From: Clostridia bacterium
GTDB taxonomy: Bacteria; Bacillota; Clostridia; RGIG6154
Assembly: GCA_045589295.1 (NCBI GenBank)
Contig: JAZNOU010000012.1
Location: 165,353 to 229,352 of the forward strand
Reading direction: 5' to 3'
Length of the DNA: 64,000 nt
Shown: positions 3,368-27,029 of the stretch, one piece after another
Layout: every line of letters starts with the position of its first letter
Numbering within the stretch: position 1 is the first letter of the stretch
Made by a program: the position numbers and the translations under genes
Notes under the pieces: model-generated
The model's input: the letters and a program-made list of their open reading frames with translations, nothing else
Told to the model about the DNA's origin: nothing
The model's database searches: none

Positions 3368-3371
3368 GATT

Positions 3372-3485
3372 TTAAGCTTCGGGGCAGGGTGAGATTCCCT
3401 ACCGGCGGTTATAGCCCGCGAGCGCAAAAGCGCAGATTTGGTGTAATTCCAAAGCCGACGGTAAAGTCCGGATGAAAGAAGTTGT
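3372..3485 (+). promoter_or_regulatory. FMN riboswitch (RFN element) aptamer
   Basis: It contains the hallmark RFN conserved segments CTTCGGGGCAGGGTGAGATTCCCTACCGGCGGT...AGCCCGCGAGC...GATTTGGTGTAATTCCAAAGCCGACGGTAAAGTCCGGATGAAAGAAG. Confidence 0.85.
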
Positions 3486-3499
3486 AAAAATTAGTATTT

Positions 3500-3558: not shown

Positions 3559-4104
3559 ATGAAAAAGAAAAATTTAAGAAAACTTACAGTTATGGGACTT
3601 TTGTGTGCGGTGTCTGTGATTTTGGTGTCAATTATTCACTTTCCACTTTTTGCGGCAGCACCATTTTTAGAGTATGATCCGGCAGATGTTCCGATATTTA
3701 TCGCAACATTTTCGTTTGGTCCTGTGGCAGGGTTTTTGGTTACTATAGTAACTTCTGTTATTCAAGGAACAACTGTCAGTGCATCAAGCGGACTTTACGG
3801 AATTTTAATGCACATAATTTCAACAGGAAGCTTTTGCCTTGTGTCAGGGGTTACATATAAAAAGTTTCACACAAAAAAGGGCGCTGCGATTTCACTTGTT
3901 ATAGGAACACTTGCTATGACGCTTGTTATGATTCCTGCCAATCTATTTATAACACCGTATTTTATGGGTGCACCTGTTTCTGTTATAAAGGGGTTACTTT
4001 TGCCCGTAATTATTCCTTTTAACTTTATTAAGGCGGCTGTAAACTCTGTTATAACATTTTTGCTTTACAAAAGAATTGCAAGACTGTGGGAAAATAAAGA
4101 ATAA
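3559..4104 (+). CDS. ribU: ECF-type riboflavin transporter S component (RibU-like)
   Basis: The 181-aa product has 5-6 TM helices and sits immediately downstream of the FMN riboswitch, the conserved Firmicutes arrangement. Confidence 0.75.
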   Translation: MKKKNLRKLTVMGLLCAVSVILVSIIHFPLFAAAPFLEYDPADVPIFIATFSFGPVAGFLVTIVTSVIQGTTVSASSGLYGILMHIISTGSFCLVSGVTYKKFHTKKGAAISLVIGTLAMTLVMIPANLFITPYFMGAPVSVIKGLLLPVIIPFNFIKAAVNSVITFLLYKRIARLWENKE

Positions 4105-7451: not shown

Positions 7452-7523
7452 AACTTTAAGCAATCTCTCTTGTATGGGGGGATTGCTTGTAGGTTTTTGT
7501 CGCAAAATTTTTAGAAAAAACAC

Positions 7524-7552
7524 TTGATTTTGGTAAGTAGGTGTGCTATAAT
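7524..7552 (+). promoter_or_regulatory. consensus sigma-A promoter TTGATT-17-TATAAT
   Basis: An exact TATAAT at 7547-7552 sits 17 nt downstream of TTGATT, with an A-tract upstream. It lies 60 nt upstream of the PqqD-family gene. Confidence 0.6.
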
Positions 7553-7615: not shown

Positions 7616-7879
7616 ATGCGACTAAAAGATGGCTTTTTATTAAGAAATGTTGCCGGTGAATATGTTGTTGTCCCAACAGGGAACAGCATGGTTGACTTTA
7701 AGGCTATGATATCTCTTAATGAAACAGGCGCGTTTTTATGGGAGCAGCTTTTAGCAGACAAATCAGAGCAGCAACTTTTAGATGCGCTTTTGAGTGAGTA
7801 TGACGTTGATGAAAAAACCGCATCTGAAGATATTAAAGAGTTTGTAGAGTTGCTTAAAGAAAAGAACCTGTTGGTATGA
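7616..7879 (+). CDS. PqqD family protein (RiPP recognition element, lasso B1-like)
   Basis: The 87-aa product has the PqqD/RRE fold signature (MRLKDGFLLRNVAGEYVVVP...LNETGAFLWEQL...). A ribosome-binding site AAGGTG lies 5 nt upstream of the ATG, and the gene overlaps the next by ATGA. Confidence 0.8.
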   Translation: MRLKDGFLLRNVAGEYVVVPTGNSMVDFKAMISLNETGAFLWEQLLADKSEQQLLDALLSEYDVDEKTASEDIKEFVELLKEKNLLV

Positions 7880-8328
7880 ATATGAAAAAAGTCTTAAGTA
7901 CAAAAGAGATTATGCCTCTTGTGGGAGACATCTTAAAAACGGCGGAGCGAGTTAGGTTTACCGTTAAGGGAAACAGTATGTATCCGCTTTTAAGGTCGGA
8001 CCGCGACGAGGTAGAGGTTATAAAGTGCGATAGTATAGGCAAGTATGATATTGTTCTTTACAAAAGAAACAATGGTGACTATATTCTTCACAGGGTGCTC
8101 AAAGAAAATGACAACGCACTTTCAATAGCAGGCGATTTTGAACAGGAACTTGAAAGCCCTGTGTATAAAGATCAGGTTATTGCAAAAGTTGTCAATATAA
8201 TAAGAGACGGTAAAAAAGTTATCTCTTGTAACAACGGCATCTATAAAACGTATTGTGTTTTGTGGGCGGCGGTATTTAAAAACAGACGAAGGATACTTAA
8301 AATACTTAAGAAACTGAGGAAATGGTGA
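7876..8328 (+). CDS. S26/S24-type serine peptidase, Ser/His (SipW/ER-type-like), no TM anchor
   Basis: It has a GNSMYPLL nucleophile box and an IVLYK...YILHRVL box, with His where bacterial signal peptidase I (SPase I) has Lys. There is no N-terminal hydrophobic anchor, and the C-terminus is an amphipathic basic tail. Confidence 0.6.
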   Translation: MNMKKVLSTKEIMPLVGDILKTAERVRFTVKGNSMYPLLRSDRDEVEVIKCDSIGKYDIVLYKRNNGDYILHRVLKENDNALSIAGDFEQELESPVYKDQVIAKVVNIIRDGKKVISCNNGIYKTYCVLWAAVFKNRRRILKILKKLRKW

Positions 8329-9998
8329 AATTGAAAAATAAAGATATCGCTAAACAATGGTTTTTTAAGAATATCAGACAGGTTTTTGGCGGAGTTTTTG
8401 CTCTTACTTTTGTTTCTGTCCTGATTAATGTGTCAGGTGTCGGATTTGCGATTTCTTCAAAACGTGTTTTGGATGTAGCATCTAATTCAACTGAAGGGAA
8501 CTTATTAACAGAAGCTTTAGTTTTGTTTTCTTTGGTTGTGATTCAGCTTATTTTGCAAATTATCCTCTCTAAGTGCTATGTTAAAACGCAGGCACAAACG
8601 AGAATTAAAATAAAAACCGACTTGTTTGAAAGCATAGTGAAAAAAGATTTAACTGAGGTGAATTTTTATCACTCGGGTGAGTTGGTTAACAGGCTCACAA
8701 GCGACGTTAACGTTGTGTCAAACGCGGTGGTGGATATTTTACCAACTGCGATAGCACTTAGCATTGGGGTTTGTTTAAGCTTTGGGGTATTGTTCAGTTT
8801 GGACCCTGTTTATGCAGTTATTTATCTGATAGTTGCACCCCTTGCACTTTTAACTGCAAGATTTTTTAGAAAAAGGCTTAAAGTGTTACATAAAGAGTCG
8901 GTTTCAACCGACGGGATTGTTAAATCGTTTATGCAGGAATGTTTCAGAAATCTGCTCGTGGTCAAGGCTTTTGAAAAAGAAGATCACGTAACCGAAAAGT
9001 GTAATGCTTATCAACTTGCTAACTACAAGGTTTTGATAAAGAAAAACGATATCAGCATTTTAGCGAACGTAATGTTCTTTTTGTCCATTACTGCAGGCTA
9101 TTATTTAACTCTTATTTGGGGGGCATACAAGCTTTCGATAGGAATTTTAACAATCGGTGAAATTGTTGCAATGCTTGAACTTGTTTCACAAATTCAGTCC
9201 CCGCTAAAGTCATTATCATCACTTCTTCCGCAGTATTATTCGGCGGTAGCTTCATCTGAAAGAATTTTGGAGCTTGAAGATTTGCCTGATGAAAAACAAC
9301 TAAATGCAAGCAGTGAAAAAGTTGATGACTTTTCAAAGCTTGTCATTGACAATATGTCTTTTTCGTATGATGAAAGTTTAATTTTTGATAAAGCTTCCTG
9401 CGAAATTGAAAAAGGCGACATCGTCGGAATTTACGGCGAGTCGGGAATTGGAAAAAGCACACTTATAAAACTTATTTTAGGAGTGCTTAAGCCCAATAAG
9501 GGCGAGATTTACATAGTTGACCCGAGCGGTCAAAAGATTTTGGTTGATACAGAAACTAAAAACCTGTTTTCTTATGTGCCTCAAGGTAACCTGATATTAT
9601 CTGGCACAATAGCAGAAAACGTGGTTTTCGGTTCTGACAACATAGATATAAAGCTGGTTGAACGTTGCATCAAAGTGTCGCAGCTTGATGAAATGGTCAG
9701 TCAGTTGCCACTAAAACTTGATACAGGTTTGGGTGAAGGCGGCCTAGGTCTTTCTGAAGGACAGGTACAGCGATTATCTATCGCAAGGGCATTGTATCGG
9801 AATTCTGAAATACTGTTGCTTGATGAAGCAACGTCGGCTCTTGACCGAGAAACCGAAATCAGGGTGTTGGAGGAAATGAAGAGTTTGAATAAGACTTGTC
9901 TTTTCATAACTCACCGCAAAGAAGCACTTTTAAGTTGCAGCAAGCTTTTAAGTGTGAAAAACGGAAAGATTTCCATCGACAGGCAGGAAATTTTATAA
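8322..9998 (+). CDS. ABC transporter, fused permease/ATP-binding exporter
   Basis: The 558-aa product has six TM helices followed by a nucleotide-binding domain with Walker A (GESGIGKST), an LSEGQVQRLSIARAL signature and Walker B (LLLDEATSALD). Confidence 0.85.
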   Translation: MVKLKNKDIAKQWFFKNIRQVFGGVFALTFVSVLINVSGVGFAISSKRVLDVASNSTEGNLLTEALVLFSLVVIQLILQIILSKCYVKTQAQTRIKIKTDLFESIVKKDLTEVNFYHSGELVNRLTSDVNVVSNAVVDILPTAIALSIGVCLSFGVLFSLDPVYAVIYLIVAPLALLTARFFRKRLKVLHKESVSTDGIVKSFMQECFRNLLVVKAFEKEDHVTEKCNAYQLANYKVLIKKNDISILANVMFFLSITAGYYLTLIWGAYKLSIGILTIGEIVAMLELVSQIQSPLKSLSSLLPQYYSAVASSERILELEDLPDEKQLNASSEKVDDFSKLVIDNMSFSYDESLIFDKASCEIEKGDIVGIYGESGIGKSTLIKLILGVLKPNKGEIYIVDPSGQKILVDTETKNLFSYVPQGNLILSGTIAENVVFGSDNIDIKLVERCIKVSQLDEMVSQLPLKLDTGLGEGGLGLSEGQVQRLSIARALYRNSEILLLDEATSALDRETEIRVLEEMKSLNKTCLFITHRKEALLSCSKLLSVKNGKISIDRQEIL

Positions 9999-10020
9999 AG
10001 TTTGTTTGGGAGGAATAAAG

Positions 10021-10977
10021 ATGAAATGTAAGAGAATTATCAAAGTAGTAAGTGCGCTTGCATTAACTGTAGCTTTGTTAGTATCTGCTAGTGTTGTTTC
10101 ATTTGCTGCAACATATACAACACAGACAACATACATTAATGAAGATACTATTGAAGTTATTTCAAGAGCTACAGGCTTAAACGATGGCGAAATGGCTACT
10201 TATGTTGCTTACAGAAACGGCGAGTTCTCAGAAACTAATGCAGTTTACATCGACCAGGCAACAGAGCAGGACAATGCAGTTGAATTTAGATATCAGGCAG
10301 ATTCTGATGATGTAAAAGCAACAGTATTGTTCGGCGGTGAAAGCGCACCGAATACATTGGAGCCGGATAAAGTTGGTCATAAAATTACAGTATATGTTAA
10401 CGAAGTGGCTCAAGGCGACCAAGTTGCTGCTTATGCTGTAGCTGACTATGACGGCGAATATCTCGCAAGAGAATTTTCGGTAAACATTGAAAACGGAAAA
10501 GCTATTAAAAAAGTTGAATTCGCAGCTGATGGAGCTGAAAAAACAACTGTAGAAGCTTGGTATGTTAAAAATGGCGCGTTGGTTGTATTAAGCCGTGTTA
10601 TTGAATCAGATGGTTCATTGTACATTACAGCAGAGGATGCAACCATTTCTGTTAAACTTGGTGCTGTTACTGGTACTGAAAACACAATTACTGCATTTGC
10701 CAAAGCAGTTTGCACAGATGATGCAGACTACGGAATCTTAATTGCGGACTCAGAAGTTGAAATCGAAGCTGCTGGTCGTATTGACTGGAAAGATGCTGAA
10801 GACTACACAACTCCGGTTTATTTCAATGCTTTAGGCAAAGGTAACAATGGTGTATTTGCAGTAGAAGTAACTGATGAAGACTGCTTTGTTGCAGGTAAAA
10901 GCTTTAATGTAAAAGCTTATGCTGATTCTGGAGAGACAGAAGTGTATTCAATTGATACTGTAACTGTAAGATTATAA
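10021..10977 (+). CDS. secreted acidic beta-rich protein with signal peptide (possible cognate of the adjacent peptidase)
   Basis: An ATG at 10021 follows a GGGAGG ribosome-binding site. The signal peptide ends at ...SFA/ATYTT. The protein has no recognisable enzymatic motifs. Confidence 0.55.
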   Translation: MKCKRIIKVVSALALTVALLVSASVVSFAATYTTQTTYINEDTIEVISRATGLNDGEMATYVAYRNGEFSETNAVYIDQATEQDNAVEFRYQADSDDVKATVLFGGESAPNTLEPDKVGHKITVYVNEVAQGDQVAAYAVADYDGEYLAREFSVNIENGKAIKKVEFAADGAEKTTVEAWYVKNGALVVLSRVIESDGSLYITAEDATISVKLGAVTGTENTITAFAKAVCTDDADYGILIADSEVEIEAAGRIDWKDAEDYTTPVYFNALGKGNNGVFAVEVTDEDCFVAGKSFNVKAYADSGETEVYSIDTVTVRL

Positions 10978-11024
10978 GAGCGACTGTATCATTTAACGAT
11001 ACAAATTCAGGAGGAGAATTTACT

Positions 11025-11186
11025 ATGAAAAATTATCAAAAACCTGTTTTAGAGGTTGTTGAATTAGCAGTTGCTGAAAATATCGCTGCATTAGTGCCGA
11101 AAACTATCTATAAAAGATCAGTTGGCAAGAAGATGGCTCAGGACACCAGAATAATGCTTGTAGAAGATTTAAGTAATCTTAGCTAA
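11025..11186 (+). CDS. 53-aa peptide with lasso-precursor-like leader motif (candidate RiPP precursor)
   Basis: Translation is MKNYQKPVLEVVELAVAENIAALVPKTIYKRSVGKKMAQDTRIMLVEDLSNLS. An AGGAGG ribosome-binding site lies 10 nt upstream, and the ORF sits between the exporter operon and the kinase gene. The ORF track missed it because it is under 60 aa. Confidence 0.5.
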   Translation: MKNYQKPVLEVVELAVAENIAALVPKTIYKRSVGKKMAQDTRIMLVEDLSNLS

Positions 11187-11235
11187 TTTTAGCACTGCAA
11201 ATTAAATAAAAATTTGAGAGGATGTTTACTTTAAT

Positions 11236-12111
11236 ATGCAATATACTGTCGCAGGTTTTAATATTGATGTTGTCAGTGAACATCCTTCTTATCTTTTTAT
11301 GAGACTCAAAGACTATGAAAGCACTTTTTCGGGGGAAGCAGACTTTACAGTCAGGTGTAAAGAAGAAAAAAATATCGCTCTCCCCGATGATATTGTGCTT
11401 ATAGGTCAAAGAGTCGGAAGATGGATATGGTTTGAAAAAAAAGATGGTACGCTCGGTGCGTACATAAAATATGACGATGTCGAAAACATTGCGGCATTGG
11501 CATTGTGGGATAAAGCTTTTAAAAATATTGAATTATCTGTTTATGATATTGAGCCATACGGCAATTTGCCAATAGCTCAAAGAATTTTTTATTTACTGGG
11601 AGATGTTATTGCATACTCGGTATTAAACTGCGGTGCAGGAGTTTTCCATTCTTCTGCGATAAGTTATAAAGGAAACGGGATTTTATTTTCCGCACCATCG
11701 GGAACAGGAAAATCCACACATACATCTTTATGGAAAGATGTTTTTGGTGATAATGTTGTTATATTTAATGACGATACACCAATACTTAAGATAGAAAATG
11801 ACGTTTGTTTTGCCTACGGCTCACCTTGGAGCGGCAAAACTGCGATTAATGAAAATATAAAGGTTCCGCTTAAGGCGATTGTATGCCTTGACAGAGCGCA
11901 GACCAATTCAATAAAAAGACTTACGGGGATTAGTGCTTTTTACAGAATTTTCAATGAAATGAGAAAGCCTCCGGTTGAGAGTCTTATGGACAAGAGTCTT
12001 ACGGTTATGGATAGTATTTTGCAGAAAGTTCCGGTTTACGAGCTTTTTTGCAATAAAAATAAAGATGCAGTAATGACAGTTTTTGACGCTGTCGGTTTTG
12101 ACAAATTATAA
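11236..12111 (+). CDS. HPr kinase/phosphorylase-related kinase (HprK C-terminal-like P-loop)
   Basis: The segment GILFSAPSGTGKSTHTSLW...VVIFNDDTPIL matches the HprK P-loop and aspartate-pair architecture. The N-terminal 130 aa are unrelated to authentic HprK. Confidence 0.6.
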   Translation: MQYTVAGFNIDVVSEHPSYLFMRLKDYESTFSGEADFTVRCKEEKNIALPDDIVLIGQRVGRWIWFEKKDGTLGAYIKYDDVENIAALALWDKAFKNIELSVYDIEPYGNLPIAQRIFYLLGDVIAYSVLNCGAGVFHSSAISYKGNGILFSAPSGTGKSTHTSLWKDVFGDNVVIFNDDTPILKIENDVCFAYGSPWSGKTAINENIKVPLKAIVCLDRAQTNSIKRLTGISAFYRIFNEMRKPPVESLMDKSLTVMDSILQKVPVYELFCNKNKDAVMTVFDAVGFDKL

Positions 12112-12125
12112 GAGAGGTAAAAAGG

Positions 12126-13736
12126 ATGAATAAAAAAATATTTTTTGGTACACTTTTGTGTATGGTTTTATGTTTAAGCATTGCGACATGCGCATTTGCC
12201 GCAACATTTTCTGATTTATCAAAAAGCCACTGGGCGTACGATAATATTGTCGAATTAAGTTCACAGGGGGTTATAAACGGATACTCTGACGGTACATTTC
12301 GCCCCGAAGCATATGTTACGAGAGCTGAATTTGTTAAGCTTATAGGTACAATCGATACAATCAAAAATGGTGACTTTGACGACCTACCTAAAACTCACTG
12401 GGCATATGAATACGTTATGAAATCAGGGGTTGATGTTGACAGAAAGAACTTTCGCCCTGATGAAAATATCACAAGAGCAGAAGTTTTAGATATATTGTGG
12501 AACAGATATGGAACTGAAACAGATGCAAAAGTTCCCGGAATTATAGAAAATCAGCACAAAAATGTTCCGGCTGTTACCTGGGGATATTCTTACGGACTTA
12601 TGATAGGCGATGACGGAATAAATTTAAGACTTAGTGATGATTTGTCAAGAGCAGAAGCGGTTACACTTATTTTGCGCTCCAGAAAGATTGATACATCAAA
12701 GCAAAAGTTGCTTGCAGACAATGTAAACAGCAAGATTTTGGAAAATATTTTTAATGATACAATGCTTTTTGATAAACCTTACAGTGAAAATGAAACAGTT
12801 ACAGTTGGCGAAATTTCACACGCAGCTTTAAGACTTGCATATCAAACAAAGCAAATTCCATATAACAAGGATTTGTATATCGGCGATCCACAATTTGATG
12901 GTGATTATGCACTTGATATTGCTCACATGGCAAAACAAGTATTTGGTGAAGCTTCAAACAACAAAGAGTTTGCAGAAGGCAAGGCAAATCAACAGCAGGT
13001 TTTGGCAGCACTTATGTATGGTTATATGTTTAAAGCAAACGACTCGCCTGTAATCGGCAGAATGGATGATTACTACAAAGATGCAGTTGTTGCAAAAGGT
13101 CTTACAATGCAAAATATGTTACTTACATACACTAACAGACGCGGCATTTTTGCAAGCGCTGACGGACTTTTGCATAATGACAAAGCTGTAACACATAAAG
13201 AAATTGCATCAATTCTTTTGCAACTTGATAACTTTACAGGTTCACAAATAAGCTATTCAAACGGCAAAGAATCGGATGAAAAATTAAGCACAGATGCTTA
13301 TATTTACGAAAATGCAGATGATGGATTTGGAATTTTATTAAAAGGCATTCCAAACGTAGTTTACGAGACACCAATGAAAGCTCCTGCTAAAGAGTTTACA
13401 GTTTTTGCAAGAGATTTCTTTGAAATATTTACTACTCTTTCAGATGGCATTAAGGCAAAAGCCAAAAGCGAGGGCGCTGAAATTGTTTTAAGAGTTTATC
13501 CAACACTTATTGCAAATGCAGGCAATGAAGTTATTATGAGAACAAAGATATATGTAGCTTCAAATCCAAAAGGCTTAAATCTTGGTGAAATTATCGGTAA
13601 GTGCGATATGAATACAGATATTAAAGCCTTGGAAGGTAAAACGTATTTTGTTGATATTTCAACCAATCATCCATTGGATGACATGTACATCAATCCTGAA
13701 AATGTAAGCTTAAAACAGCTTATATGGAATGATTAA
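12126..13736 (+). CDS. SLH-domain cell-surface protein
   Basis: A signal peptide is followed by three S-layer-homology repeats (FSDLSKSHWAYDNIVEL...TRAEFVKLI and others) and an unassigned C-terminal domain. Confidence 0.7.
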   Translation: MNKKIFFGTLLCMVLCLSIATCAFAATFSDLSKSHWAYDNIVELSSQGVINGYSDGTFRPEAYVTRAEFVKLIGTIDTIKNGDFDDLPKTHWAYEYVMKSGVDVDRKNFRPDENITRAEVLDILWNRYGTETDAKVPGIIENQHKNVPAVTWGYSYGLMIGDDGINLRLSDDLSRAEAVTLILRSRKIDTSKQKLLADNVNSKILENIFNDTMLFDKPYSENETVTVGEISHAALRLAYQTKQIPYNKDLYIGDPQFDGDYALDIAHMAKQVFGEASNNKEFAEGKANQQQVLAALMYGYMFKANDSPVIGRMDDYYKDAVVAKGLTMQNMLLTYTNRRGIFASADGLLHNDKAVTHKEIASILLQLDNFTGSQISYSNGKESDEKLSTDAYIYENADDGFGILLKGIPNVVYETPMKAPAKEFTVFARDFFEIFTTLSDGIKAKAKSEGAEIVLRVYPTLIANAGNEVIMRTKIYVASNPKGLNLGEIIGKCDMNTDIKALEGKTYFVDISTNHPLDDMYINPENVSLKQLIWND

Positions 13737-13766: not shown

Positions 13767-14459
13767 ATGGAAGAAAGAGAAATTGATATCTGGGGACTAA
13801 TACAGTCAATAATTAAGAGATGGTGGATTGTTGCTATTATCACTGTTATAGTCGGAACAACAGGTTTTACATATTCAAAATTTGCAATCACTCCTTTGTA
13901 TGCGGCAAAAGGAACACTTTATATTACCGTAGACAATACTGCCTCCTTGCAAGGTGGAACAAGTCTTGATTACAACTCAATTTTGGCGGCACAGGAGCTT
14001 ACAAAAACATATTCTTTAATACTTTCAAGTAATACATTCTACAGAATTGTTGCTGCAGAAAGCGGACTTGACTACAGCTATAAAGAAATTTCAAGAATGG
14101 TTACAATGGGCAACGAAAATGACAGTGAAATTATGTCGATTACAGCAAAATGTGCAAATAGAGAACACGCAGCTATTATTGTTGAAACTATACTTAACAA
14201 TGCACAGGCAGAAATTTCAAGAGTGGTTATTGGCGGAAGTGTAAGAATTATTGACCATCCTGAACTTCCTAACGGACACTCATATCCTAACGTAACAAAG
14301 AACACATTCTTATGCTTGGCGCTTGGTGTTATCTTAGGTTGTGCTCTTGCAATTTTCATTGAATGGCTTGATGATACAATCAAGAGTGATGAGGATGTGC
14401 TGAAGTTTGGCATCCCGATATTAGCAGTTATCCCGCTTTTAGAAACAAAAAGCGAGTAA
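13767..14459 (+). CDS. Wzz/CpsC/YwqC-family polysaccharide chain-length (tyrosine-kinase modulator) protein
   Basis: It has two TM helices, a periplasmic-type loop and a C-terminal DDTIKSDEDVLKFGIPILAVIP segment typical of CapA/YwqC. No cognate BY-kinase gene follows. Confidence 0.8.
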   Translation: MEEREIDIWGLIQSIIKRWWIVAIITVIVGTTGFTYSKFAITPLYAAKGTLYITVDNTASLQGGTSLDYNSILAAQELTKTYSLILSSNTFYRIVAAESGLDYSYKEISRMVTMGNENDSEIMSITAKCANREHAAIIVETILNNAQAEISRVVIGGSVRIIDHPELPNGHSYPNVTKNTFLCLALGVILGCALAIFIEWLDDTIKSDEDVLKFGIPILAVIPLLETKSE

Positions 14460-14487: not shown

Positions 14488-17400
14488 GTGAGAGAAGATA
14501 TGAGAAAGCGTGTAAAATCGCTTATTGGCATGATTATTGCAATGACTATGATCTTGCCGACGGCTTTGCCGGTGACAACTCCTGTTTCGGCACAAAATTC
14601 CTACGGATTTAATGATTTTCCTACCGGATGGTCAGCACCTGCAATGTCACATGCAGTTGAAAACGGATTGATATACGGAAAATCCGAAGACCGTATATGT
14701 CCTACAGATAATTTAACTAGAGCGGAAATGGCTACAATCATTAACCGTGCATTCGGTGCTACGGTGGAAAAGGATATTTCGGCATTTTCAGATGTAGCTC
14801 AGTCAGCTTGGTATTACAATGAAATAAAAAAGGCATACAATATGCAAACCCTTTATGGTGATGCAGGCGGCACTATGCGTCCCGATGCCTTTATTATAAG
14901 AGAAGAAGCCATAGCGATTGTTGCAAGAGCTATGGTTTTAAGTGGTTATTCGGCTTCTAATCTTGATAAGTTTAATGATAAAGACCAAATTGCAGATTGG
15001 GCAGTAGATCCGCTGGCTTCAATGGTAGCAAACGGCTACGTTAACGGCGATGAAAAGTCTAATATGAATCCGAAGGCATTCATTACCAGAGAAGAATTTG
15101 CTCAGCTTTTACATAATATTGTTAAGCATTATTATGATGCTGAAGATGGCGTAACAACATTCAACGGGAATGTTATGATTAATGAACCGACCACTTCATT
15201 GAGTGATTTGGTTGTTAATGGCGATCTTATTTTGGGTGATGGTGTTGGAACAAGCAACATTGTTCTAAAAAATGTTAAAGTAACAGGTCGTATCCTTATC
15301 AGAGGCGCAACCCATATTTCGTTTAAAAACAGCAACTTTGGTGGCGGCGTTACAGTTAAAAATGTTAATGATGTGGTACATTTTGATCATTTTAGTGATG
15401 AAGTGCATTTTAATGATATGCAAGATCACACAGAGGTCACATTTAAGAAGAAAACTACCGGCGGTGGCGGTGGTGGAACTCCTCCGGCACCTACAACTGC
15501 TAGTTATAAAGTGGAACACTATCAGGAAGCTTTGGATGGAAGTTTTGCAGTTTTTGAAACAGAAACCCTTTCAGGCAGTATTGGTGCAAGTGTTACAGCA
15601 GTAGCTAAAACCTATACAGGTTTTAGCGAAGATACTGTAAATCCATCAAGAGTTGCAACAGGCACTGTTGTATCTGATGGTTCTTTGACTCTTAAGCTTT
15701 TTTACACAAGAAACAGTTATACAGTAACATTTGATGCTCGCGGCGGTGCTATTTCAGGCACACCGAAAACTGTTTATAAATTCGGTGAAACATTAGAACT
15801 CCCTGTACCTACAAAAGGAACAGACACATTTGGCGGGTGGTGGACAGCGCTAAATGGAACAGGAACAAAAATTGAAAATACAAGCGTATTGGGAACAGAT
15901 ATTACATCTGCTGCCATTACTGTTTATGCGCATTGGATACCTGCAGCTCCGACTCCCACAGCTACGACGTTTACAGTAAAACATTTGTTTGAAAAACTTG
16001 ACGGAACTTATGAAACTAAAGCAGAACGCGGAGATGAACTTAACGTTGCCGGTGATATAACGGTTTCAATCGTTCCTGAAAATTACAGAAATCCGATTGC
16101 GGGATTTAATTATTTTGATTATAGCTTTGACGGAACAGACAATGCAGGCATGCCAAAAGCAGATGGAAGCACTGTTCTTAATATCCGTTATAATAGAAAG
16201 AGCTACGACATCGTATATAACTATGGTGAAGCAGGCGGAAGCAACACAGTTTCATTTAGATATGGTGAAAGTGTAGATCTTTCAATTCCGACAGTTACAC
16301 CACCTGTAGGTAAGTATTTTGCAGGTTGGTATGATGCACTTGTTGGCGGCACACAGGTAACATTCCTTGAAACACCTGTTGGCGGAACAACAATTTATGC
16401 ACGTTGGGCAGAAGATGTTGGAGTTTATACTGTTGAATTCTATCAGCAGAATTTGGATGGAACTTACACCCAAGTAACTGCGGACACTTTATCAGGACTT
16501 ACTGGTGTAGTAGGAACAGATGTAAGTGTGGATAAAAATTCGACCACAATCAAAGATAAGTATATAGGTTTTGAAGTTAATGAAACAGAAAGTACACTCA
16601 CACAAAGACTTGCTAAAACAGGCACAGTACTTAAAGTTTATTATGACAGAAAGATTTATACAATCGATTACGACTTTGATGGCGGTTATGCAGATGGAAC
16701 ATATACTGATACATTTATGTATGGCCAAACCGTTGCGCTTGCCAAAGGTAAAAATAGCAATGGCAAGGTTTTAGGCGGTTGGTTTACCGATTTAGATGGT
16801 AATGGCACACAGGTAACAGATACTGCAAATATTGATGCTATCTTAGGCGCGCTCACAGGCAATACAATCACACTTTATGCTTATTGGGTAGAAGAAATAG
16901 GCGAATATTCTGTTGAATTCTATCAGGAAACTTTAGATGGTGCTGATTATACTCTTGTTGCAGCTGACACTATTGTCGGTCTTACAGGAACAGTCGGCGA
17001 GAAAGTAGCTATTGATGCAACAATAGATGAAGTTAAGAATAAATATTCAGGCTTTACAGTAAACGTTGCAAAGAGTGAACTTTCAAAAACACTTGCTAAA
17101 GAGGGCACAGTTCTTAAAGTTTACTACGACAGAAATATTTATACCTTGTATTACAATTATAGCGATGCTGATACTGTGGGAATTGGAAGTGCGACCTTTA
17201 AACATGGTCAGAATATCACATTCCCTGATGAATCAACATTCAATAAAGAATCATTTAGCTTTGCAGGCTGGTACACAACCCAGGACTTTAAAGATGATGA
17301 AGTTGTAGATACAGGCAATACAATCGAACAGATTATAGACATTGCAAATGGTGAAACAGAAACTACCATATATGCTAAATGGGCAAAATTCTTCACAGTA

Positions 17401-20400
17401 ACATTCAGAGAGGGTGCAAAAATAGGAACGTACACAGTTGATCCTGCTGTTGAAAACACAGTTCCGTATTCTGCATTCCCTTACGACAAACTTGTTGAAC
17501 GTTATAAGACAGGTTACTTTGAAGATGAATCTGTATCTTCTGTATACGCAGGTAATGAGTATAAACACACATTTGAAGGACAGTGGTACTACACAGATGA
17601 AAACGGCAACGATGTCGTATTTACAGACGAAACAATTGTAGACCGCGATCTTACAGTAAGATATAAATTCAGATATGTGAGACTGGAACTTTTTGTTGAG
17701 AAATTAGGTCATAACCTTGTACTTGAGGTGCCTTTTGAAGAAAGTACAAGAATTATCGACACAATTAAAGATGAATTGTTTGTAAATCAGGAAAAAATAC
17801 TTTTGGTTGCAGATGAAGTTGATGCAAGAAGCAAGTTTATGGCGTTGAACCTTAAGTTGGTTAACTTCCTTGACAGTAAGGGAATTGAAATAGTTGAACC
17901 TGGTATGATTTTCGCCGAAGATGGCGAAATCTTAAAGCAACATATCAGATTTAATGCATTTGCATATCTTGATGAAGCAAGTGTTAAGACTGTTGTTGTA
18001 AACGCAATCAGAACAACATTCAAAAATGATCCTTTAAGAATGCGTGGCGTTATCGATGAAATGATGACAGAACAGGATGAAGACGTTGTTAACCTTATGG
18101 ATACAATGCTTGTATCTATGCTTTCAGGTTCAGATGCTGCAAGAATCAAGGGTATTATTGCAGATGCGGTGGAAGATGCGGTTGCAAATGATACAACCGG
18201 TGAGTTCAAAAACAAAATTAAAGACATCATAACAACACAGCTTGATGCAGGTAATACAACAGTTGAAACAAGCATTAAAAAGGCAATTAAAGATTACTTT
18301 ATGAACAGCGCAAATGATGCTAAAATCAGAGAAATCGTTTCAGACCTTATTGATGATGCTTATAAAACTGATGATGAAACCGATCCGGTAAGGAATTTCG
18401 TGAAGAGTTACATAAAGACATATCTTAACGAAAACCCAACAGTTTTAGATGATATGATCAGAGAAATGGGCGAAAATTTAGATCCTAATGATCCTAACGA
18501 TGCGCACATTATTGATCTTATTCATGAAGTTTTAGACGAAAATGTAATATATCTTGAAAAACTTGTTGATGATGCTATCAAGAACCTTAAAAACACAATA
18601 GGCGAACCAATACACAGCTTTATCGTTGATGCCATCACAACAGAGCTTTCAACTAATGCTGCTGAGCTTGATATTTTGATTGATGAAATCTCAAATGCAA
18701 ACGTAACTGATATTAAGTCGGTGCTTGCAACAGTTATGGAAGATAACGATACATTTGAAATTATTGTTAAAGATGCAATTGCCGATGAAGCGGTATTTAA
18801 TAAGGTTATCAAAGCTGCTCTTGACAACGCAAGTGTATTTGATGCAATCGTAAGCGAACTTTGCAGCGGCGATACGAGCTTCTATAATATGCTTGTAGAC
18901 ATTGCACTTTCGTCAGATTCACTTAAGGGCGAGGTTAAAAATGCAGTTGTTAATAATGATGATGCACTTATAAGCGTACTTAATGAAGTGGCATCTGATG
19001 CTTCACTTAAAGCTGAAATGGTTGAAGAAATTTTAGTTGCTTCTGATGCTAAGCTTAAAGATCAGCTTACAAGCCCGCTTTCTATAACATCGGATTATTA
19101 TGCAGACGTTAAAGCTCAGGCACTCAGTCAGGCTGAAACTGAAATAATAGGCATAATCGAAACAGGTATCAATGAAGATGAACACCCAGATTACTGGCCG
19201 ATTGCTTTTGAAAAGGCTATGGAAATAGCAGAAGCAAGAGTTAGACAGGATCTTATTGCTGGCAGTGTTGATCCTAACGGTTCACTTTGGGATACAATGT
19301 ATGCAGAGGCAATGGCTCAAGCAGCAATTGATGTCAAAGCAGAGCTTAACGGAGGTATTACTGATGCTTCAGAATACTACGCAGCTGCTGTAAATGGTGC
19401 TAAAGAGCAGGCAGAAAAAGAAATTACAGACTTACTTTCAACAGGTATTACTGAGGGTAGCAAGTACTGGGATGTTGCATATAGTACTGCAAAAGGAATT
19501 CTTAGAACCGAAATTGACACATCATTCGATTCAAAGATTGTAGAAATCAAGACAGATGCTAATCTTAAAGCACAGGTGGTAGCTTGGGCACAGACAGCGA
19601 TTAATAACACTAATATAGAAAGTGCTATTAAGAACTATGCTAAAGGCTTGGCTACAAGCACAGACTCTGCGGATGTTAGCCTTAGAACATCAATTATTGA
19701 CACTGTAATCAATACAGCAGATAGCTTAGAACCAGGTAAAAAAGAGACATTGGTTAGTGATATTATCACAGAGCTTTTGAAACCTGCAAATGCAACAGTT
19801 AAAGAGACTGTTGAAAACAAGGCTATTGAAGTATTAAACAGAGCTGAAAACAATGCACTTAAAACTACGCTTATCGATAGTGTGCTTGAAGATATCTTTG
19901 CTGACAACACACTTAAAGGCGATTTGATTGCAAGACTTAAGACTAAGGTTAAGGACCCTGCACAGGAAGCATTTAAGTTAACTGTTATTAGCGAAGCTAT
20001 CAATGCAGTTGTTAATGATAGCTCAGTTAATGCAAGGGCAGTTATAATAATAAATGACCTGATTGAAACAGATACTGCATTTAAGGCAGACATTATAGAG
20101 CACATCGTCGACTATATCTTAGAAGATGCTACTGTTAGAGCTGAAGCTATGGAAAAGGTTGTCGAAATGATTGAAGATCCGGAAGATGACAGCCATAAGC
20201 AGGAAGCAATCGACTTTGCGTTTGACACCCTTAAGGGCGACACAACGAAACGTGCAGAAATTGTGGATAAGTTCTTAACAAACATCTTAGGTAATAATGA
20301 CAAGAGAGAAGATATGGCAACAGAAGTTATCGACATTATGTTCTCTAACGATACCTTAAGAAATAGGATTTTAGATCTTGGGTTCGAACAGATGTTCGCA

Positions 20401-21714
20401 GGTGAAGATACAATTGCAGAAATTGTTTCACTTGCACTCGACGAACTCATTAGTGACGATACCGTAAGACGTGATATGATTATTGCAGTAATCAGCACTG
20501 AAAGCGGAAGAAGAAAGATTTTAGACATTCTCTTTGATGAACTTGAAAGGGATCCTGAGTTCATTGACGAAATAGTTGACATCGCAATGAACGGCAAGTA
20601 TGGCGATTTGGTTGATATATTTGTATCCGACCTTATTTACAACGGAAAGATTCAGATTAATCCAGACAACAGACAAATCGCAGAAGAAATCGTTCTTCCA
20701 ATGTTAGACGACATTTCTCTTGATACTGTTTTAGGCAAATTGCCCGCAAAAGTTACAGATGTTTTACCAACATCTGTAATCGAAAAGGCGTTTAACAAGT
20801 TTAAGTCAAAAGCAAGAGAACTTTTGGTTGAAGGTATAAATGAAGCTAAAGAAGGCAACTGGAAAGACATTTCAGTTATGGTGGACAACGAGCTTGATAT
20901 AATTAATGAAGTTTTAGTTCCGCTTTATAATAAAGTATTCCCGAAAGTTGTTGACAAAGCTGAGGACTTCTACTACTACAACGAAAATGTTTACTTAAAA
21001 GCAATAGTTGACATGATTGACCCTGAGTTCTTGCTTGATAACACAAAACCGGCATCAATTGGTGGAACAGGATACAGATTAAGAACAACAGAAGAATATT
21101 ATGAAATTATCAGAAATATCTCTGTTTTAGTTGATGATGCAGCAAACTGGTATATGGAAAACATTTCTGATGACCAGATTAACGGTGCTATTGACAAAGT
21201 TGCAGGAAAAGTTAATACTTTACTTGCAAAGGTTAATGGACTTGTGGGCGGAAGAATACCAATGTCTAAGATTGACAAAGTGGTTGAATACACCAAGAAG
21301 GCTCTTGATAAGAGAGAAAGCGTTTATAATATTACAACAAATGGTGTATTTGAAAAGGTTGACAAGGTTTATAACAAGCTTATTGAAATTGTTAAAAACA
21401 AAACCGGTGTTGATATTACTAAGTCTACTACGATAGAAGTTACTTTTGACGGAAGTGAAATCGACGTAAACGGTAAGGATGTCAACATTGACAATCGTAA
21501 GATAAGCATCAGTGTTAAAGGTTACAAATTTGAACTTGATTCAGAATCAATCACAGCACTTAACAAAACTGTTAATATTGACAGATTTGTTCAAAAAGCT
21601 GCCGATTTATTCGGAACAAGAAGTGTAACATTTAAAATTATAAATGATGCTCCGTACAGCTACGGTGCTTATGTGGGCAATAACTACATAAAGTTAGCTG
21701 CTGAGTACAAATAA
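14488..21714 (+). CDS. giant (2408 aa) SLH-anchored surface protein with Listeria-Bacteroides-type repeat modules and long acidic helical C-terminal region
   Basis: A signal peptide and three SLH repeats are followed by a Gly6 linker. At least six Y-x-V-x-F...GWY/W repeat modules come next, and then an about 1,300-aa D/E-rich low-complexity region. Confidence 0.85.
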   Translation: MREDMRKRVKSLIGMIIAMTMILPTALPVTTPVSAQNSYGFNDFPTGWSAPAMSHAVENGLIYGKSEDRICPTDNLTRAEMATIINRAFGATVEKDISAFSDVAQSAWYYNEIKKAYNMQTLYGDAGGTMRPDAFIIREEAIAIVARAMVLSGYSASNLDKFNDKDQIADWAVDPLASMVANGYVNGDEKSNMNPKAFITREEFAQLLHNIVKHYYDAEDGVTTFNGNVMINEPTTSLSDLVVNGDLILGDGVGTSNIVLKNVKVTGRILIRGATHISFKNSNFGGGVTVKNVNDVVHFDHFSDEVHFNDMQDHTEVTFKKKTTGGGGGGTPPAPTTASYKVEHYQEALDGSFAVFETETLSGSIGASVTAVAKTYTGFSEDTVNPSRVATGTVVSDGSLTLKLFYTRNSYTVTFDARGGAISGTPKTVYKFGETLELPVPTKGTDTFGGWWTALNGTGTKIENTSVLGTDITSAAITVYAHWIPAAPTPTATTFTVKHLFEKLDGTYETKAERGDELNVAGDITVSIVPENYRNPIAGFNYFDYSFDGTDNAGMPKADGSTVLNIRYNRKSYDIVYNYGEAGGSNTVSFRYGESVDLSIPTVTPPVGKYFAGWYDALVGGTQVTFLETPVGGTTIYARWAEDVGVYTVEFYQQNLDGTYTQVTADTLSGLTGVVGTDVSVDKNSTTIKDKYIGFEVNETESTLTQRLAKTGTVLKVYYDRKIYTIDYDFDGGYADGTYTDTFMYGQTVALAKGKNSNGKVLGGWFTDLDGNGTQVTDTANIDAILGALTGNTITLYAYWVEEIGEYSVEFYQETLDGADYTLVAADTIVGLTGTVGEKVAIDATIDEVKNKYSGFTVNVAKSELSKTLAKEGTVLKVYYDRNIYTLYYNYSDADTVGIGSATFKHGQNITFPDESTFNKESFSFAGWYTTQDFKDDEVVDTGNTIEQIIDIANGETETTIYAKWAKFFTVTFREGAKIGTYTVDPAVENTVPYSAFPYDKLVERYKTGYFEDESVSSVYAGNEYKHTFEGQWYYTDENGNDVVFTDETIVDRDLTVRYKFRYVRLELFVEKLGHNLVLEVPFEESTRIIDTIKDELFVNQEKILLVADEVDARSKFMALNLKLVNFLDSKGIEIVEPGMIFAEDGEILKQHIRFNAFAYLDEASVKTVVVNAIRTTFKNDPLRMRGVIDEMMTEQDEDVVNLMDTMLVSMLSGSDAARIKGIIADAVEDAVANDTTGEFKNKIKDIITTQLDAGNTTVETSIKKAIKDYFMNSANDAKIREIVSDLIDDAYKTDDETDPVRNFVKSYIKTYLNENPTVLDDMIREMGENLDPNDPNDAHIIDLIHEVLDENVIYLEKLVDDAIKNLKNTIGEPIHSFIVDAITTELSTNAAELDILIDEISNANVTDIKSVLATVMEDNDTFEIIVKDAIADEAVFNKVIKAALDNASVFDAIVSELCSGDTSFYNMLVDIALSSDSLKGEVKNAVVNNDDALISVLNEVASDASLKAEMVEEILVASDAKLKDQLTSPLSITSDYYADVKAQALSQAETEIIGIIETGINEDEHPDYWPIAFEKAMEIAEARVRQDLIAGSVDPNGSLWDTMYAEAMAQAAIDVKAELNGGITDASEYYAAAVNGAKEQAEKEITDLLSTGITEGSKYWDVAYSTAKGILRTEIDTSFDSKIVEIKTDANLKAQVVAWAQTAINNTNIESAIKNYAKGLATSTDSADVSLRTSIIDTVINTADSLEPGKKETLVSDIITELLKPANATVKETVENKAIEVLNRAENNALKTTLIDSVLEDIFADNTLKGDLIARLKTKVKDPAQEAFKLTVISEAINAVVNDSSVNARAVIIINDLIETDTAFKADIIEHIVDYILEDATVRAEAMEKVVEMIEDPEDDSHKQEAIDFAFDTLKGDTTKRAEIVDKFLTNILGNNDKREDMATEVIDIMFSNDTLRNRILDLGFEQMFAGEDTIAEIVSLALDELISDDTVRRDMIIAVISTESGRRKILDILFDELERDPEFIDEIVDIAMNGKYGDLVDIFVSDLIYNGKIQINPDNRQIAEEIVLPMLDDISLDTVLGKLPAKVTDVLPTSVIEKAFNKFKSKARELLVEGINEAKEGNWKDISVMVDNELDIINEVLVPLYNKVFPKVVDKAEDFYYYNENVYLKAIVDMIDPEFLLDNTKPASIGGTGYRLRTTEEYYEIIRNISVLVDDAANWYMENISDDQINGAIDKVAGKVNTLLAKVNGLVGGRIPMSKIDKVVEYTKKALDKRESVYNITTNGVFEKVDKVYNKLIEIVKNKTGVDITKSTTIEVTFDGSEIDVNGKDVNIDNRKISISVKGYKFELDSESITALNKTVNIDRFVQKAADLFGTRSVTFKIINDAPYSYGAYVGNNYIKLAAEYK

Positions 21715-25809: not shown

Positions 25810-25814
25810 ATTGT

Positions 25815-26445
25815 TGTAAAATTGGGTGGTGCAGTATTCTAGTCAGATTTTTTCATTCCCAGGACGGGCCTAAAAATCCGTTGAAGGGCACATCGATGAA
25901 GTTTCTGGTGCGGGCTTTCGACGCCCAGTCGAGGGTTTGTGCTGGGAGTTAAGGATTAAGGGCGGTCGGCAATGGCATGCAGAATTCGACCCTTCTTCCG
26001 TGGAGACCTATACTTGTGCCGTATTGGCCGACTAGTCTGTGAAGACTCGGCTGAAAAGGTACGACTTAGGATTAAACCTGCGTTGCGGTCTTTTTTGGCT
26101 GTGCGCAGAGTAGCCTGCCTTGAGCGGTTGTGGTGGATTGCAAGATCAGGTTTTGTCTGGTTGGCCGACCGGACAAAACTATTGCTTCATGAAACCACAT
26201 TTGCAAAAGAGGCTAAGATTGATTAAATCTGTCGAGGAAATCTCCTAGACTGTTGGAAACAGATACGCAAAGGATTGAAGTGCGGACTAAGTGGCAATCG
26301 GGTACAAAGTTGAGCGATCGCTTTGGTCTTCTTTTAAAGGGAAACCGCTTACATCGGCGACGAGTGAGCAAGAAGGCGGGAAAGCCAACCCGACCTAAGC
26401 CGTAAATTTTACTTTGTGTATTACCCCTTAAATTTACATTTATTT
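25815..26445 (+). ncRNA. OLE (ornate large extremophilic) RNA candidate
   Basis: This is an about 600-nt GC-rich (about 50% against about 33% background) ORF-poor island with its own promoter. It sits immediately upstream of a 4-TM 21-kDa protein gene and dxs-tlyA-nadK-argR-recN, which is the published OLE/oapA synteny. Confidence 0.6.
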
Positions 26446-26459
26446 GGGAGAAATGATAA

Positions 26460-27029
26460 TTGAAAAAGAAAATTAGATTTAAACCGGGAAAGAAACAAAT
26501 AAGCATAAAATATATTTTTGTGATTTCTTTAATAACTCTTGCTATTGCCGTTTTAATGAAAGCAATAAGCGATGCTATTTTGGAAAATATTGTATTAACA
26601 TACAGCTATTTTATTCTGCTGGGAATAATTTTAATTGGTATTATATTTGACATAGTAGGCGTTGCGGTTACTTCAAGTGACGATACAAAATTTCACGCTA
26701 TGGCGGCAGACAAAGTGTATGGAGCAAAAGAAAGCATTATGCTTATAAAAAATGCGGAAAAAGTTTCCAGTATCTGCAATGACGTAATAGGTGATGTGTG
26801 TGGTATTGTAAGTGGAGCAGTGTCCTCTTGGGTTGTAGTGCAACTTGCAATGGGGGCACTAAAAGGCGAAGAAATTCTCGCTCTGGTTATGACAGGCGTT
26901 GTTTCGGCATTAACTGTAGGTGGCAAAGCTCTTGGTAAGTTTTTTGCACTTAATTACAATTGCAGTATTGTGTATATTGCGGGGAAAATAATACGATTTT
27001 TTAAGTTTTCCAAGAACTATAGGAGGTAG
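26460..27029 (+). CDS. oapA: OLE-associated protein A (OapA)-like small 4-TM membrane protein
   Basis: The 189-aa product has four predicted TM helices and a TTG start with a GGAG ribosome-binding site. Its position between the structured RNA and dxs is the assignment's main support. Confidence 0.6.
   Translation: MKKKIRFKPGKKQISIKYIFVISLITLAIAVLMKAISDAILENIVLTYSYFILLGIILIGIIFDIVGVAVTSSDDTKFHAMAADKVYGAKESIMLIKNAEKVSSICNDVIGDVCGIVSGAVSSWVVVQLAMGALKGEEILALVMTGVVSALTVGGKALGKFFALNYNCSIVYIAGKIIRFFKFSKNYRR

Follow-up and report, generated by a model that had tools for sequence, protein, structure and literature searches.

Linear polyphosphorylated peptides (LPPs) have been described in Bacilli, including Paenibacillus alginolyticus (Popov et al., Nat Commun 2026;17:6633, PMC13381572). 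The present analysis concerns a short open reading frame (ORF) encoding 53 amino acids (aa) at nucleotide (nt) positions 11025–11186 of a 64,000 nt stretch of DNA from a Clostridia bacterium (contig JAZNOU010000012.1; the whole stretch is termed the window). The ORF probably encodes the precursor of a linear peptide made on the ribosome and modified after translation (RiPP), whose maturation would depend on a RiPP recognition element (RRE) and whose pathway would be built like the LPP pathway of Bacilli.

An LPP gene cluster encodes a signal peptidase I-like (SpI-like) peptidase, LppS, a discrete RRE, LppB, an HprK-like kinase, LppK, a nucleoside triphosphate (NTP) transferase, LppN, and an MsbA-like pump, LppD. 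The clusters are often embedded in capsular polysaccharide loci (PMC13381572). The LPP precursors are 35–200 aa long and display the N-terminal consensus YxxPxVLxHQxIxFETxxS followed by variable C-termini (PMC13381572). LppS cuts the leader after Thr-1 only when LppB presents the leader, and the several phosphates added by LppK are found at core Ser3 and not at a C-terminal Ser (PMC13381572). In LppB, residues N33 and D70 fix the kinked Pro of the leader and the hydroxyl of its Tyr, as shown crystallographically; Pro-13 and Tyr-16 of LppA are held by these two residues together with Y60 and F74, and the role of the YxxP motif has been shown for the LppA/LppB pair (PMC13381572). The 'HprK kinase' calls in LPP neighbourhoods comprise 67 of TIGR04249, 65 of TIGR04352 and 11 of TIGR04355, out of 152 (PMC13381572 supplement). 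According to the part of that paper's data that covers them, a few clostridial peptidases (Desulfosporosinus, Dehalobacter, Anaerocolumna and an uncultured Ruminococcus) fall into the separate sequence similarity network (SSN) clusters 4 and 9, and are recorded there with an 'other' (non-LPP) RRE and with no LPP precursor (PMC13381572).

A second related system is the paeninodin type of lasso peptide, where an HPr-kinase homologue acts on the linear precursor (Zhu et al. 2016, reviewed in PMC8498205). Precursors of this type share little beyond the C-terminal Ser, which is the site of (poly)phosphorylation (PMC8498205).

Conservation of the small gene

An earlier note, made from the sequence alone, had proposed the ORF as the unannotated precursor gene of a lasso-type peptide. 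The ORF, its start signal and its segments are as follows.

11009–11014, + strand: Shine-Dalgarno sequence AGGAGG, read directly, 10 nt before the ATG
11025–11186, + strand: predicted precursor peptide gene (LppA analogue), 53 aa, ATG at 11025, TAA ending at 11186
11025–11117, + strand: codons 1–31, MKNYQKPVLEVVELAVAENIAALVPKTIYKR, conserved leader and conserved start of the core
11034–11051, + strand: codons 4–9, Y-Q-K-P-V-L, putative RRE-binding motif of the pattern [Y/W]xxPx[L/V/I], invariant in 41 clusters
11118–11183, + strand: codons 32–53, variable tail ending in Leu-Ser

Translation of 11025–11186 (+) gives MKNYQKPVLEVVELAVAENIAALVPKTIYKRSVGKKMAQDTRIMLVEDLSNLS, which is identical to the sequence quoted in the earlier note; the coordinates and the ribosome binding site described there are likewise confirmed. 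The Shine-Dalgarno sequence is kept as AGGAGG or AGAAGG in all six loci compared.

A word-indexed search of 5.8 billion proteins revealed an identical 53 aa protein, encoded on a 247-kb NCBI contig, as well as 40 other clusters of 52–55 aa. Synteny extends from the M23 peptidase gene to Wzz in all of the close-clade contigs that were fetched, and the ORF is kept in the syntenic loci. One homologue, MBQ2896932.1, is already annotated as 'hypothetical protein [Clostridia bacterium]'. Thus the ORF is a conserved small gene, as had been supposed, but it is not unannotated everywhere. None of eight family peptides has a match to any NCBIfam model, even at E ≤ 10.

In the alignment of the 41 clusters, the first 31 positions include 27 that never vary and four that are at least 90% conserved. 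The mean pairwise aa identity of this segment is 0.97. The tail that follows is 21–24 aa long, with Ser as the last residue in 41/41 clusters and L or I as the penultimate one in 39/41. Among six loci the mean pairwise aa identity of the tail is 0.34, which is below that of any whole gene of the operon. The tail DNA cannot be aligned between loci; nevertheless the frame, the length and the position of the stop codon are kept. The tail of the window itself (11118–11183, SVGKKMAQDTRIMLVEDLSNLS) is an outlier within the clade, and most relatives fit the pattern xxGxxLAQxGVxMYxLxxDEKLS.

Differences in the leader among six distinct loci are almost all synonymous (CAA/CAG, GAA/GAG, TTA/TTG, AAT/AAC, ATC/ATT, the four Pro codons and AAA/AAG), the only replacements being N3K, A22T and V24I. 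The identical-codon fraction, i.e. the share of conserved residues that are encoded by the same codon, has the following values.

Eight neighbouring genes: identical-codon fraction 0.52–0.68, aa identity 0.56–0.81
Peptide codons 1–19: identical-codon fraction 0.91, aa identity 0.98
Peptide codons 20–31: identical-codon fraction 0.66, aa identity 94%
Peptide tail: identical-codon fraction 0.62, aa identity 0.34

Codons 20–31 thus combine ordinary synonymous divergence with a very high aa identity, which argues for selection on the protein. The high fraction in codons 1–19 points to an extra constraint at the nt level in this segment. As judged from these substitution patterns, the small ORF is a real, translated and conserved gene, with its N-terminal 31 residues under strong purifying selection.

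The nt-level constraint extends beyond the ORF. A sliding DNA comparison gives a background of about 75–80% identity, 92–97% at 10971–11120 and about 40% in the tail codons; the spacer after the ORF and the start of the next gene are back to about 90%. The 5′ untranslated 45 nt, codons 1–19 and the 49-nt spacer before the kinase gene are 87–97% identical between loci. The spacer (11187–11235, TTTTAGCACTGCAAATTAAATAAAAATTTGAGAGGATGTT) is almost identical in the window and in loci L001, L002 and L089–L091, while the other intergenic regions of the operon show 65–75% identity. High DNA identity picks up again exactly at the terminal Ser codon AGC. Positions 10979–10987 (AGCGACUGU) in the 5′ untranslated region can form nine base pairs with positions 11067–11075 (GCAGUUGCU, codons 15–17), a helix that would enclose the ribosome binding site and the start codon. 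Neither arm varies among six loci, one of which (L002) differs in the untranslated sequence in between, and no covariation is found in the helix (alifold). This pairing could account for the suppressed synonymous change in codons 1–19.

A second conserved island of 93–100% nt identity to L001 is found at 9630–10110. It covers the 3′ end of the ABC transporter gene, a short spacer and the signal peptide codons of the secreted-protein gene (identical-codon fraction 0.88), and is directly followed by the fast-evolving remainder of the latter gene.

The conserved sequence might instead be mainly an RNA or DNA element, i.e. a 5′ leader, an attenuator of the kinase gene (a possibility that the earlier note had itself raised) or the recombination flanks of a variable cassette, with the ORF being incidental. 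The identity of the untranslated flanks and of codons 1–19, which is well above background, the identical-codon fraction in these codons and the invariant pairing around the start codon all favor such an element, but it would not explain why codons 20–31 diverge synonymously at an ordinary level under high aa identity, nor why the frame, the 21–24 codon length and the stop position of the tail are kept in 41 clusters. In addition, an Rfam search of the region shows no family at E ≤ 1 except three chance eukaryotic models, the RNA fold of the region is not unusual (z = −1.68), the helix lacks covariation, and no + strand terminator-like site appears between the small ORF and the kinase gene in a consensus scan. 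An explanation by such an element is therefore considered very improbable. With a ribosome binding site and a coding-type substitution pattern, the region reads as a translated gene and not as an attenuator of the downstream gene; an RNA-level layer may be present alongside the coding function, but is no substitute for it.

A diversity-generating retroelement as the origin of the tail was also considered and rejected. A blastn-short comparison of 11090–11240 with the window gave only chance matches of up to 19 nt. No reverse transcriptase was found among the window ORFs scanned.

The operon and its recurrence

The small gene lies in a long + strand unit, in the following order.

7457–7489, + strand: terminator-like hairpin, a 14-pair stem followed by a T-run (consensus scan)
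7524–7552, + strand: promoter-like site, TTGATT, 17 nt spacer, TG-TATAAT, ahead of the PqqD gene
7616–7879, + strand: discrete RRE of the PqqD family (LppB or lasso B1 analogue), Pfam PqqD 4.9e-19
7876–8328, + strand: soluble archaeal-type signal peptidase I-like (S26/S24) protein, 150 aa, predicted leader peptidase (LppS analogue); the gene overlaps both neighbours
8322–9998, + strand: MsbA-like ATP-binding cassette (ABC) exporter with fused permease and ATPase (LppD analogue), Pfam ABC_membrane and ABC_tran, TIGR02203 MsbA 5.8e-70
10021–10977, + strand: secreted all-beta protein, 318 aa from MKCKRI (318–323 aa across loci), directly upstream of the ORF
11025–11186, + strand: the small ORF
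11236–12111, + strand: ScmC-family P-loop protein, 291 aa, PEPCK/HprK fold, predicted peptide kinase (LppK analogue)

The terminator-like hairpin appears to close the upstream M23 peptidase gene and would mark the start of the transcription unit. The promoter-like site has the top + strand score in the scan, with 10/12 matches and an extended −10 element, and is a consensus match only. The earlier note had placed the ORF between a PqqD-ABC operon and an HprK-like kinase. These flanks are present at 7616–9998 and 11236–12111, but the secreted-protein gene at 10021–10977 had been overlooked.

The PqqD-family protein has two lasso PqqD chaperone models as its best NCBIfam matches, both below cut-off. 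It is 29% identical to LppB, and its residues N35, Y62, D72 and F76 align with LppB N33, Y60, D70 and F74. The Y-x-x-P-x-L motif recognised by lasso/PqqD-type RREs is present in the ORF as claimed, and the PqqD protein keeps the gripping residues of LppB. The peptidase-like protein gives a weak match to TIGR02228 sigpep_I_arch (1.8e-5, below cut-off). It displays the GNSMYP and HRV motifs that are typical of Ser/His signal peptidases and, by inspection, has no N-terminal membrane anchor. BLASTP alignment with LppS (21% identity, E = 2e-8) places Ser34 and His72 on the catalytic Ser29 and His68. Similarity is higher to WP_073589069.1 of Anaerocolumna, a member of SSN cluster 4 of PMC13381572 (39% identity, E = 3e-32). 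The ABC protein is without a C39 peptidase domain; its alignment with the bacteriocin_ABC model begins at profile position 164, and its matches to the bacteriocin cleavage/export models all begin past the peptidase domain of these models.

The secreted protein has an invariant Sec signal peptide of the ordinary A-x-A type and a conserved first domain. Its C-terminal two thirds are fast-evolving, with 45% identity compared with 77% for ScmC in the same genomes. The structural model, with a mean predicted local distance difference test score (pLDDT) of 78.7, resembles only generic FN3/Ig sandwiches. This FN3-like protein is a partner specific to the peptide subfamily of the window. Co-diversification of the peptide tail with the secreted protein was considered, the Mantel r being 0.59. 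However, r is 0.64 against the conserved N-terminal part of the protein, and this equally high value indicates shared descent only; co-diversification was therefore rejected.

TIGR04249 (ScmC) is the sole match of the 291 aa protein (7.4e-5, 22 bits against a cut-off of 125), and more than 2000 homologues carry Pfam PF27840 ScmC. An AlphaFold model made from 45 homologues (pLDDT 93.7) has a PEPCK/HprK fold, in agreement with the HprK-like character proposed earlier. The P-loop SAPSGTGKST and the motifs NDD and GxPWSGK are invariant. A sequence search of the PDB with this protein gave no match.

A scan of a genome collection with the kinase gave a single locus; wider sampling was therefore taken from metagenome contigs, where a scan with the ScmC alignment gave 80 more loci, analyzed by six-frame translation and jackhmmer. 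Neighbourhoods were counted over the 33 metagenome or genome loci that have at least 4 kb on both sides of ScmC. Within 4 kb of ScmC the peptidase is found in 28/33 loci, PqqD in 22/33, the ABC exporter in 20/33, a small ORF with a YxKP leader in 13/33, Wzz in 8/33 and a homologue of the secreted protein in 5/33.

Examples of YxKP-leader ORFs are MKEYKKPELYIEEFELEDILTVSLVDGDPDDGWY (L019), two tandem copies in L015 and Cys-rich forms of 81–89 aa in L058 and L076. The leader family of the window aligns with the other YxKP leaders over 23 columns with an hhalign probability of 97%. The other clostridial leaders keep a Ser or Thr a few residues after an E-[D/E] pair, e.g. EDIITTS and EDILTVS. Tandem or long Cys-rich YxKP-leader ORFs are located at 6298–6589 of L015, 6494–6826 of L023, 4800–5069 of L058 and 2461–2814 of L076. 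Several short ones end in an acidic stretch and then an aromatic residue (DDGWY, IPYW, ELDWI, DFEW). The tandem, Cys-rich and acidic-aromatic variants suggest several sub-classes of product.

A profile search of 1.84 billion representative proteins gave 23 small proteins of 49–66 aa, with the pattern MKxYxKPxhxVhELxhxENIAAhVPKTIYKK followed by tails rich in S, G, T and N. Residues Thr27 and Tyr29 are conserved across this wider family. Their C-terminal residue can be S, A, I, T, Q, V, D or F, and Ser is found in only about a quarter of 21 representatives. By these sequence relationships the ORF belongs to a broad clostridial family of small peptides that is tied to a cassette of ScmC, PqqD and peptidase, with or without the ABC exporter. 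Three loci show how the composition varies.

L006: secreted protein, peptide and ScmC, with PqqD and peptidase and no ABC gene within the flank; the peptide ends in II
L007: secreted protein, peptide and ScmC, with no PqqD or peptidase within 8 kb; adjoins Wzz, CpsD-like and CpsB genes; the peptide ends in GA
L008: ScmC alone (7926–8867), between ffh/ylxM and a gene for an HtrA-like protease

Within 8 kb of the ScmC homologue of L008, PqqD, the peptidase and small leader-type ORFs are all missing; thus the kinase family can also occur apart from the cassette.

Genes downstream of the kinase gene have an envelope character.

12126–13736, + strand: SLH-domain protein, Pfam SLH 1.9e-23
13767–14459, + strand: Wzz chain-length determinant, Pfam Wzz 4.4e-11
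14488–21714, + strand: SLH-domain protein of 2408 aa, following Wzz

The first two form an envelope context and may lie outside the pathway; their order, SLH then Wzz, is common to all close loci and is also found in L006 and L009. The 2408 aa protein has repeated modules rich in beta structure and a very long stretch of acidic helical repeats, and its homologues reach 3500–3700 aa in related contigs. Elsewhere in the window, a flavin mononucleotide (FMN) riboswitch at 3371–3487 (+, 117.7 bits) precedes a 181 aa membrane protein (3559–4104), whose counterpart in syntenic contigs is annotated as an ECF riboflavin transporter S component. A full-length ornate large extremophilic (OLE) RNA is present at 25810–26443 (+, 513 bits, E = 1.4e-147). 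It is directly followed by an ORF for a 189 aa membrane protein (26460–27029), which may be the usual OLE-associated partner.

Proposed pathway and rival explanations

Binding, cleavage, phosphorylation and export are inferred from homology with the LPP and paeninodin systems, which have been studied experimentally. The peptide would be translated from its own strong ribosome binding site within the operon. The PqqD protein would bind the Tyr4-x-x-Pro7-x-Leu9 motif as a beta strand. The ScmC-family kinase, with its HprK/PEPCK fold, would next phosphorylate a hydroxyl residue of the C-terminal part. The RRE would then present the leader to the soluble signal peptidase I-like Ser/His enzyme, which would cut the leader off. 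The cut may be after Asn19, if the spacing from the Tyr is as in LppA, or after Ala22, if the pattern of a hydrophobic residue at −3 and a small one at −1 applies. Finally, the MsbA-like transporter would export the product to the cell envelope, near S-layer and polysaccharide functions.

The candidate acceptors are the clade-invariant Ser53, as with the paeninodin-type kinases, and the family-conserved Thr27 and Tyr29. If the peptide is phosphorylated at all, the terminal Ser is a tentative choice that we regard as somewhat doubtful. The parallel with paeninodin noted earlier stands for the 41 close clusters, where the Ser is invariant, but most of the wider family ends otherwise. LppK uses Ser3, which weighs against a terminal acceptor (PMC13381572). 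The Ser codon is AGC in 6/6 loci and is located at the edge of a conserved DNA block; thus conservation of the residue is not separable from conservation at the nt level.

Several observations count against an LPP-like pathway as a whole. The leaders of the window family and of the LPPs have only the first nine columns (KKxYxxPxh) in common, with an hhalign probability of 35%. The FET-xxS motif is missing, with Ala17 in place of F-3, Asn19 in place of T-1 and Ala22 at the position of the phosphorylated Ser3. No NTP-transferase (NTP_transf_5, LppN) was found in a Pfam scan that covered the proteins of the operon and most larger ORFs in the window, nor is one among the called genes of the syntenic contigs. 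The third catalytic residue of the peptidase is Glu93 where LppS has Asp93, in proteins with a total identity of only 21%. The terminal Ser is not conserved outside the close clade, the peptide ending in II in L006 and in GA in L007. Absence of PqqD and the peptidase within 8 kb in L007, and the solitary ScmC of L008, imply that the kinase may have another substrate. Lastly, part of the leader conservation, in codons 1–19 and both untranslated flanks, is at the nt level and goes beyond the function of the peptide. With these points taken into account, the precursor function still appears to be the probable one.

Another explanation is a role of the small protein together with the secreted FN3-like protein and ScmC in assembly of the S-layer or envelope, e.g. 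as chaperone, anchor or regulator, and not as a substrate of PqqD, peptidase and ABC exporter. The trio of secreted protein, peptide and ScmC does recur, in L007 without PqqD or peptidase within 8 kb, SLH and Wzz genes follow in most close loci, and the first 12 residues past the predicted cut equal the leader in conservation, an uncommon trait in a RiPP core. However, the peptide begins with a classic RRE-binding motif, the RRE has retained the residues that would contact this motif, and related leaders are found beside ScmC/PqqD/peptidase cassettes that have no homologue of the secreted protein. The peptide itself also lacks a signal peptide and a transmembrane segment; thus it would need the ABC exporter to meet its secreted partner. 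Such an envelope function in place of the pathway is judged unlikely.

The peptide could also be a lasso precursor of the paeninodin type, phosphorylated at the C-terminal Ser, with the cyclase and the B2 peptidase encoded elsewhere in the genome. The YxxPxL in the leader, the lasso PqqD chaperones that are the best, though below cut-off, NCBIfam matches of the PqqD protein, the adjacent HprK-fold protein and the clade-invariant C-terminal Ser, as in paeninodin-type precursors (PMC8498205), are all in keeping with this. Y4-Q-K-P7-V-L9 indeed fits the lasso leader pattern [Y/W]xxPx[L/V/I/F/A], but the YxxPxL pattern is common to lasso, LPP and pyrroloquinoline quinone (PQQ) precursors and is therefore not diagnostic. 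Among the ORFs scanned in the 64 kb there is no Asn-synthase-like macrolactam cyclase, no transglutaminase-like (B2) peptidase (no Transglut_core match) and no nucleotidyltransferase; neither cyclase nor B2 peptidase is among the called genes of the syntenic contigs. The signal peptidase-like gene overlaps the RRE gene, as in LPP clusters where this enzyme replaces B2. The leader has no Thr at its penultimate position, and a conserved 12-residue segment follows the predicted cut where a lasso core would begin with Gly or Ala and have Asp or Glu at positions 7–9. The lasso assignment of the earlier note is thus not upheld and has very little probability left, and an LPP-type pathway fits the locus. 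An unmodified secreted peptide that acts as a signal or resembles a bacteriocin, with the export and processing known from class II bacteriocins or pheromones, is equally hard to credit. The small size, conserved N-terminus, variable C-terminus and adjacent ABC exporter would suit it, but there is no double-glycine leader, the ABC protein lacks a C39 domain, no immunity gene, histidine kinase/response regulator pair or RRNPP receptor is seen in the operon, and the RRE and the kinase-fold enzyme argue for modification.

Comparison with known systems

The likeness to paeninodin clusters consists of the YxxPxL-type leader, the discrete RRE and the HprK-fold protein, and the window clade likewise keeps only the terminal Ser in a variable tail. 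Unlike paeninodin clusters, the window shows neither a macrolactam cyclase nor a B2 cysteine peptidase among the ORFs scanned, so that a lasso fold is not expected, and a nucleotidyltransferase or sulfotransferase is likewise absent. In addition, the leaders of paeninodin clusters have Trp (WxxP), and Gly takes the place of Asn35 of the window RRE in the RREs of these clusters.

The SynChlorMet cassette is defined with two radical S-adenosylmethionine enzymes (NCBIfam models ScmE and ScmF). Its ScmC protein (TIGR04249/PF27840) and the HprK-related kinases A and B (TIGR04352/TIGR04355) are similar to the window kinase in being P-loop, HprK-like proteins that are typically found beside a PqqD-like protein. 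However, neither ScmE nor ScmF is present here and the window protein is far below the TIGR04249 cut-off.

The SipW/TasA type of matrix secretion in Bacillus and Clostridium perfringens also has a signal peptidase of the endoplasmic reticulum/archaeal type beside a secreted beta-rich protein. The window peptidase differs in having no membrane anchor at the N-terminus, the secreted protein has an ordinary Sec signal, and the peptidase groups with RRE-linked SpI and not with bona fide SipW (SSN cluster 2 of PMC13381572). A SipW-like enzyme acting on the secreted protein was rejected as the principal explanation because the peptidase accompanies PqqD and ScmC in most loci without the secreted protein.

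The LPP systems are the closest. The window has the LPP core set of SpI-like peptidase, discrete RRE, HprK-like kinase and MsbA transporter, a precursor whose N-terminus carries the KKxYxxPx motif and whose C-terminus varies, and an RRE in which the Asn and Asp contact residues are conserved (N35 and D72). The surroundings, with Wzz and SLH genes, are likewise related to envelope polysaccharide. The spacing from the Tyr to the cleavage site aligns without gaps and places Glu18 of the window on E-2 of LppA. The differences go beyond those set out above. Downstream of YxxPx, the window sequence EVVELAVAEN is unrelated to the VLxHQxIxFET of LPPs. The window peptide has the 12-residue conserved segment after the predicted cut and, in the close clade, an invariant C-terminal [L/I]-Ser. 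The peptidase is nearer to the SSN cluster 4 member than to LppS, an extra gene for a secreted FN3-like protein is located just upstream of the ORF, and the host is an uncultured lineage of Clostridia from gut or rumen samples, not of Bacilli. Two defining features of LPPs, the NTP-transferase and the FET-xxS motif, both fail; thus the locus is better described as a variant of the LPP kind than as a member.

A further possibility, which we hold to be doubtful, is that the clostridial ScmC/PqqD/signal peptidase-like cassettes and their YxKP-leader peptides are a separate and much larger sister family to the LPPs of Bacilli. Its size is indicated by the more than 2000 kinase homologues and hundreds of metagenome loci. 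If this were true, the subfamily of the window would have dropped the NTP-transferase and the Ser3 site, gained the fast-evolving secreted FN3-like partner, and fixed the core segment IAALVPKTIYK and the terminal [L/I]-Ser. It would then use a different acceptor site or chemistry, e.g. phosphorylation of the C-terminal Ser or of Thr27/Tyr29, and might have a dedicated role in S-layer/exopolysaccharide assembly or in surface variation, and not in antibiosis.

LPPs have been known since 2026 and have been described for Bacilli only. The locus offers a candidate precursor family for the clostridial clusters of signal peptidase and RRE, a type of cluster that is common in gut and rumen metagenomes. 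It suggests that an LPP-type pathway can lack both the NTP-transferase and the Ser3 motif. It also provides a compact set of five or six genes for asking what ScmC-type kinases phosphorylate, how a signal peptidase-like enzyme reads a leader presented by an RRE, and why such peptides are located in envelope polysaccharide and S-layer loci. The finding thus extends a known kind of system and does not introduce a new principle; the nearest described relatives remain the LPPs of Bacilli.

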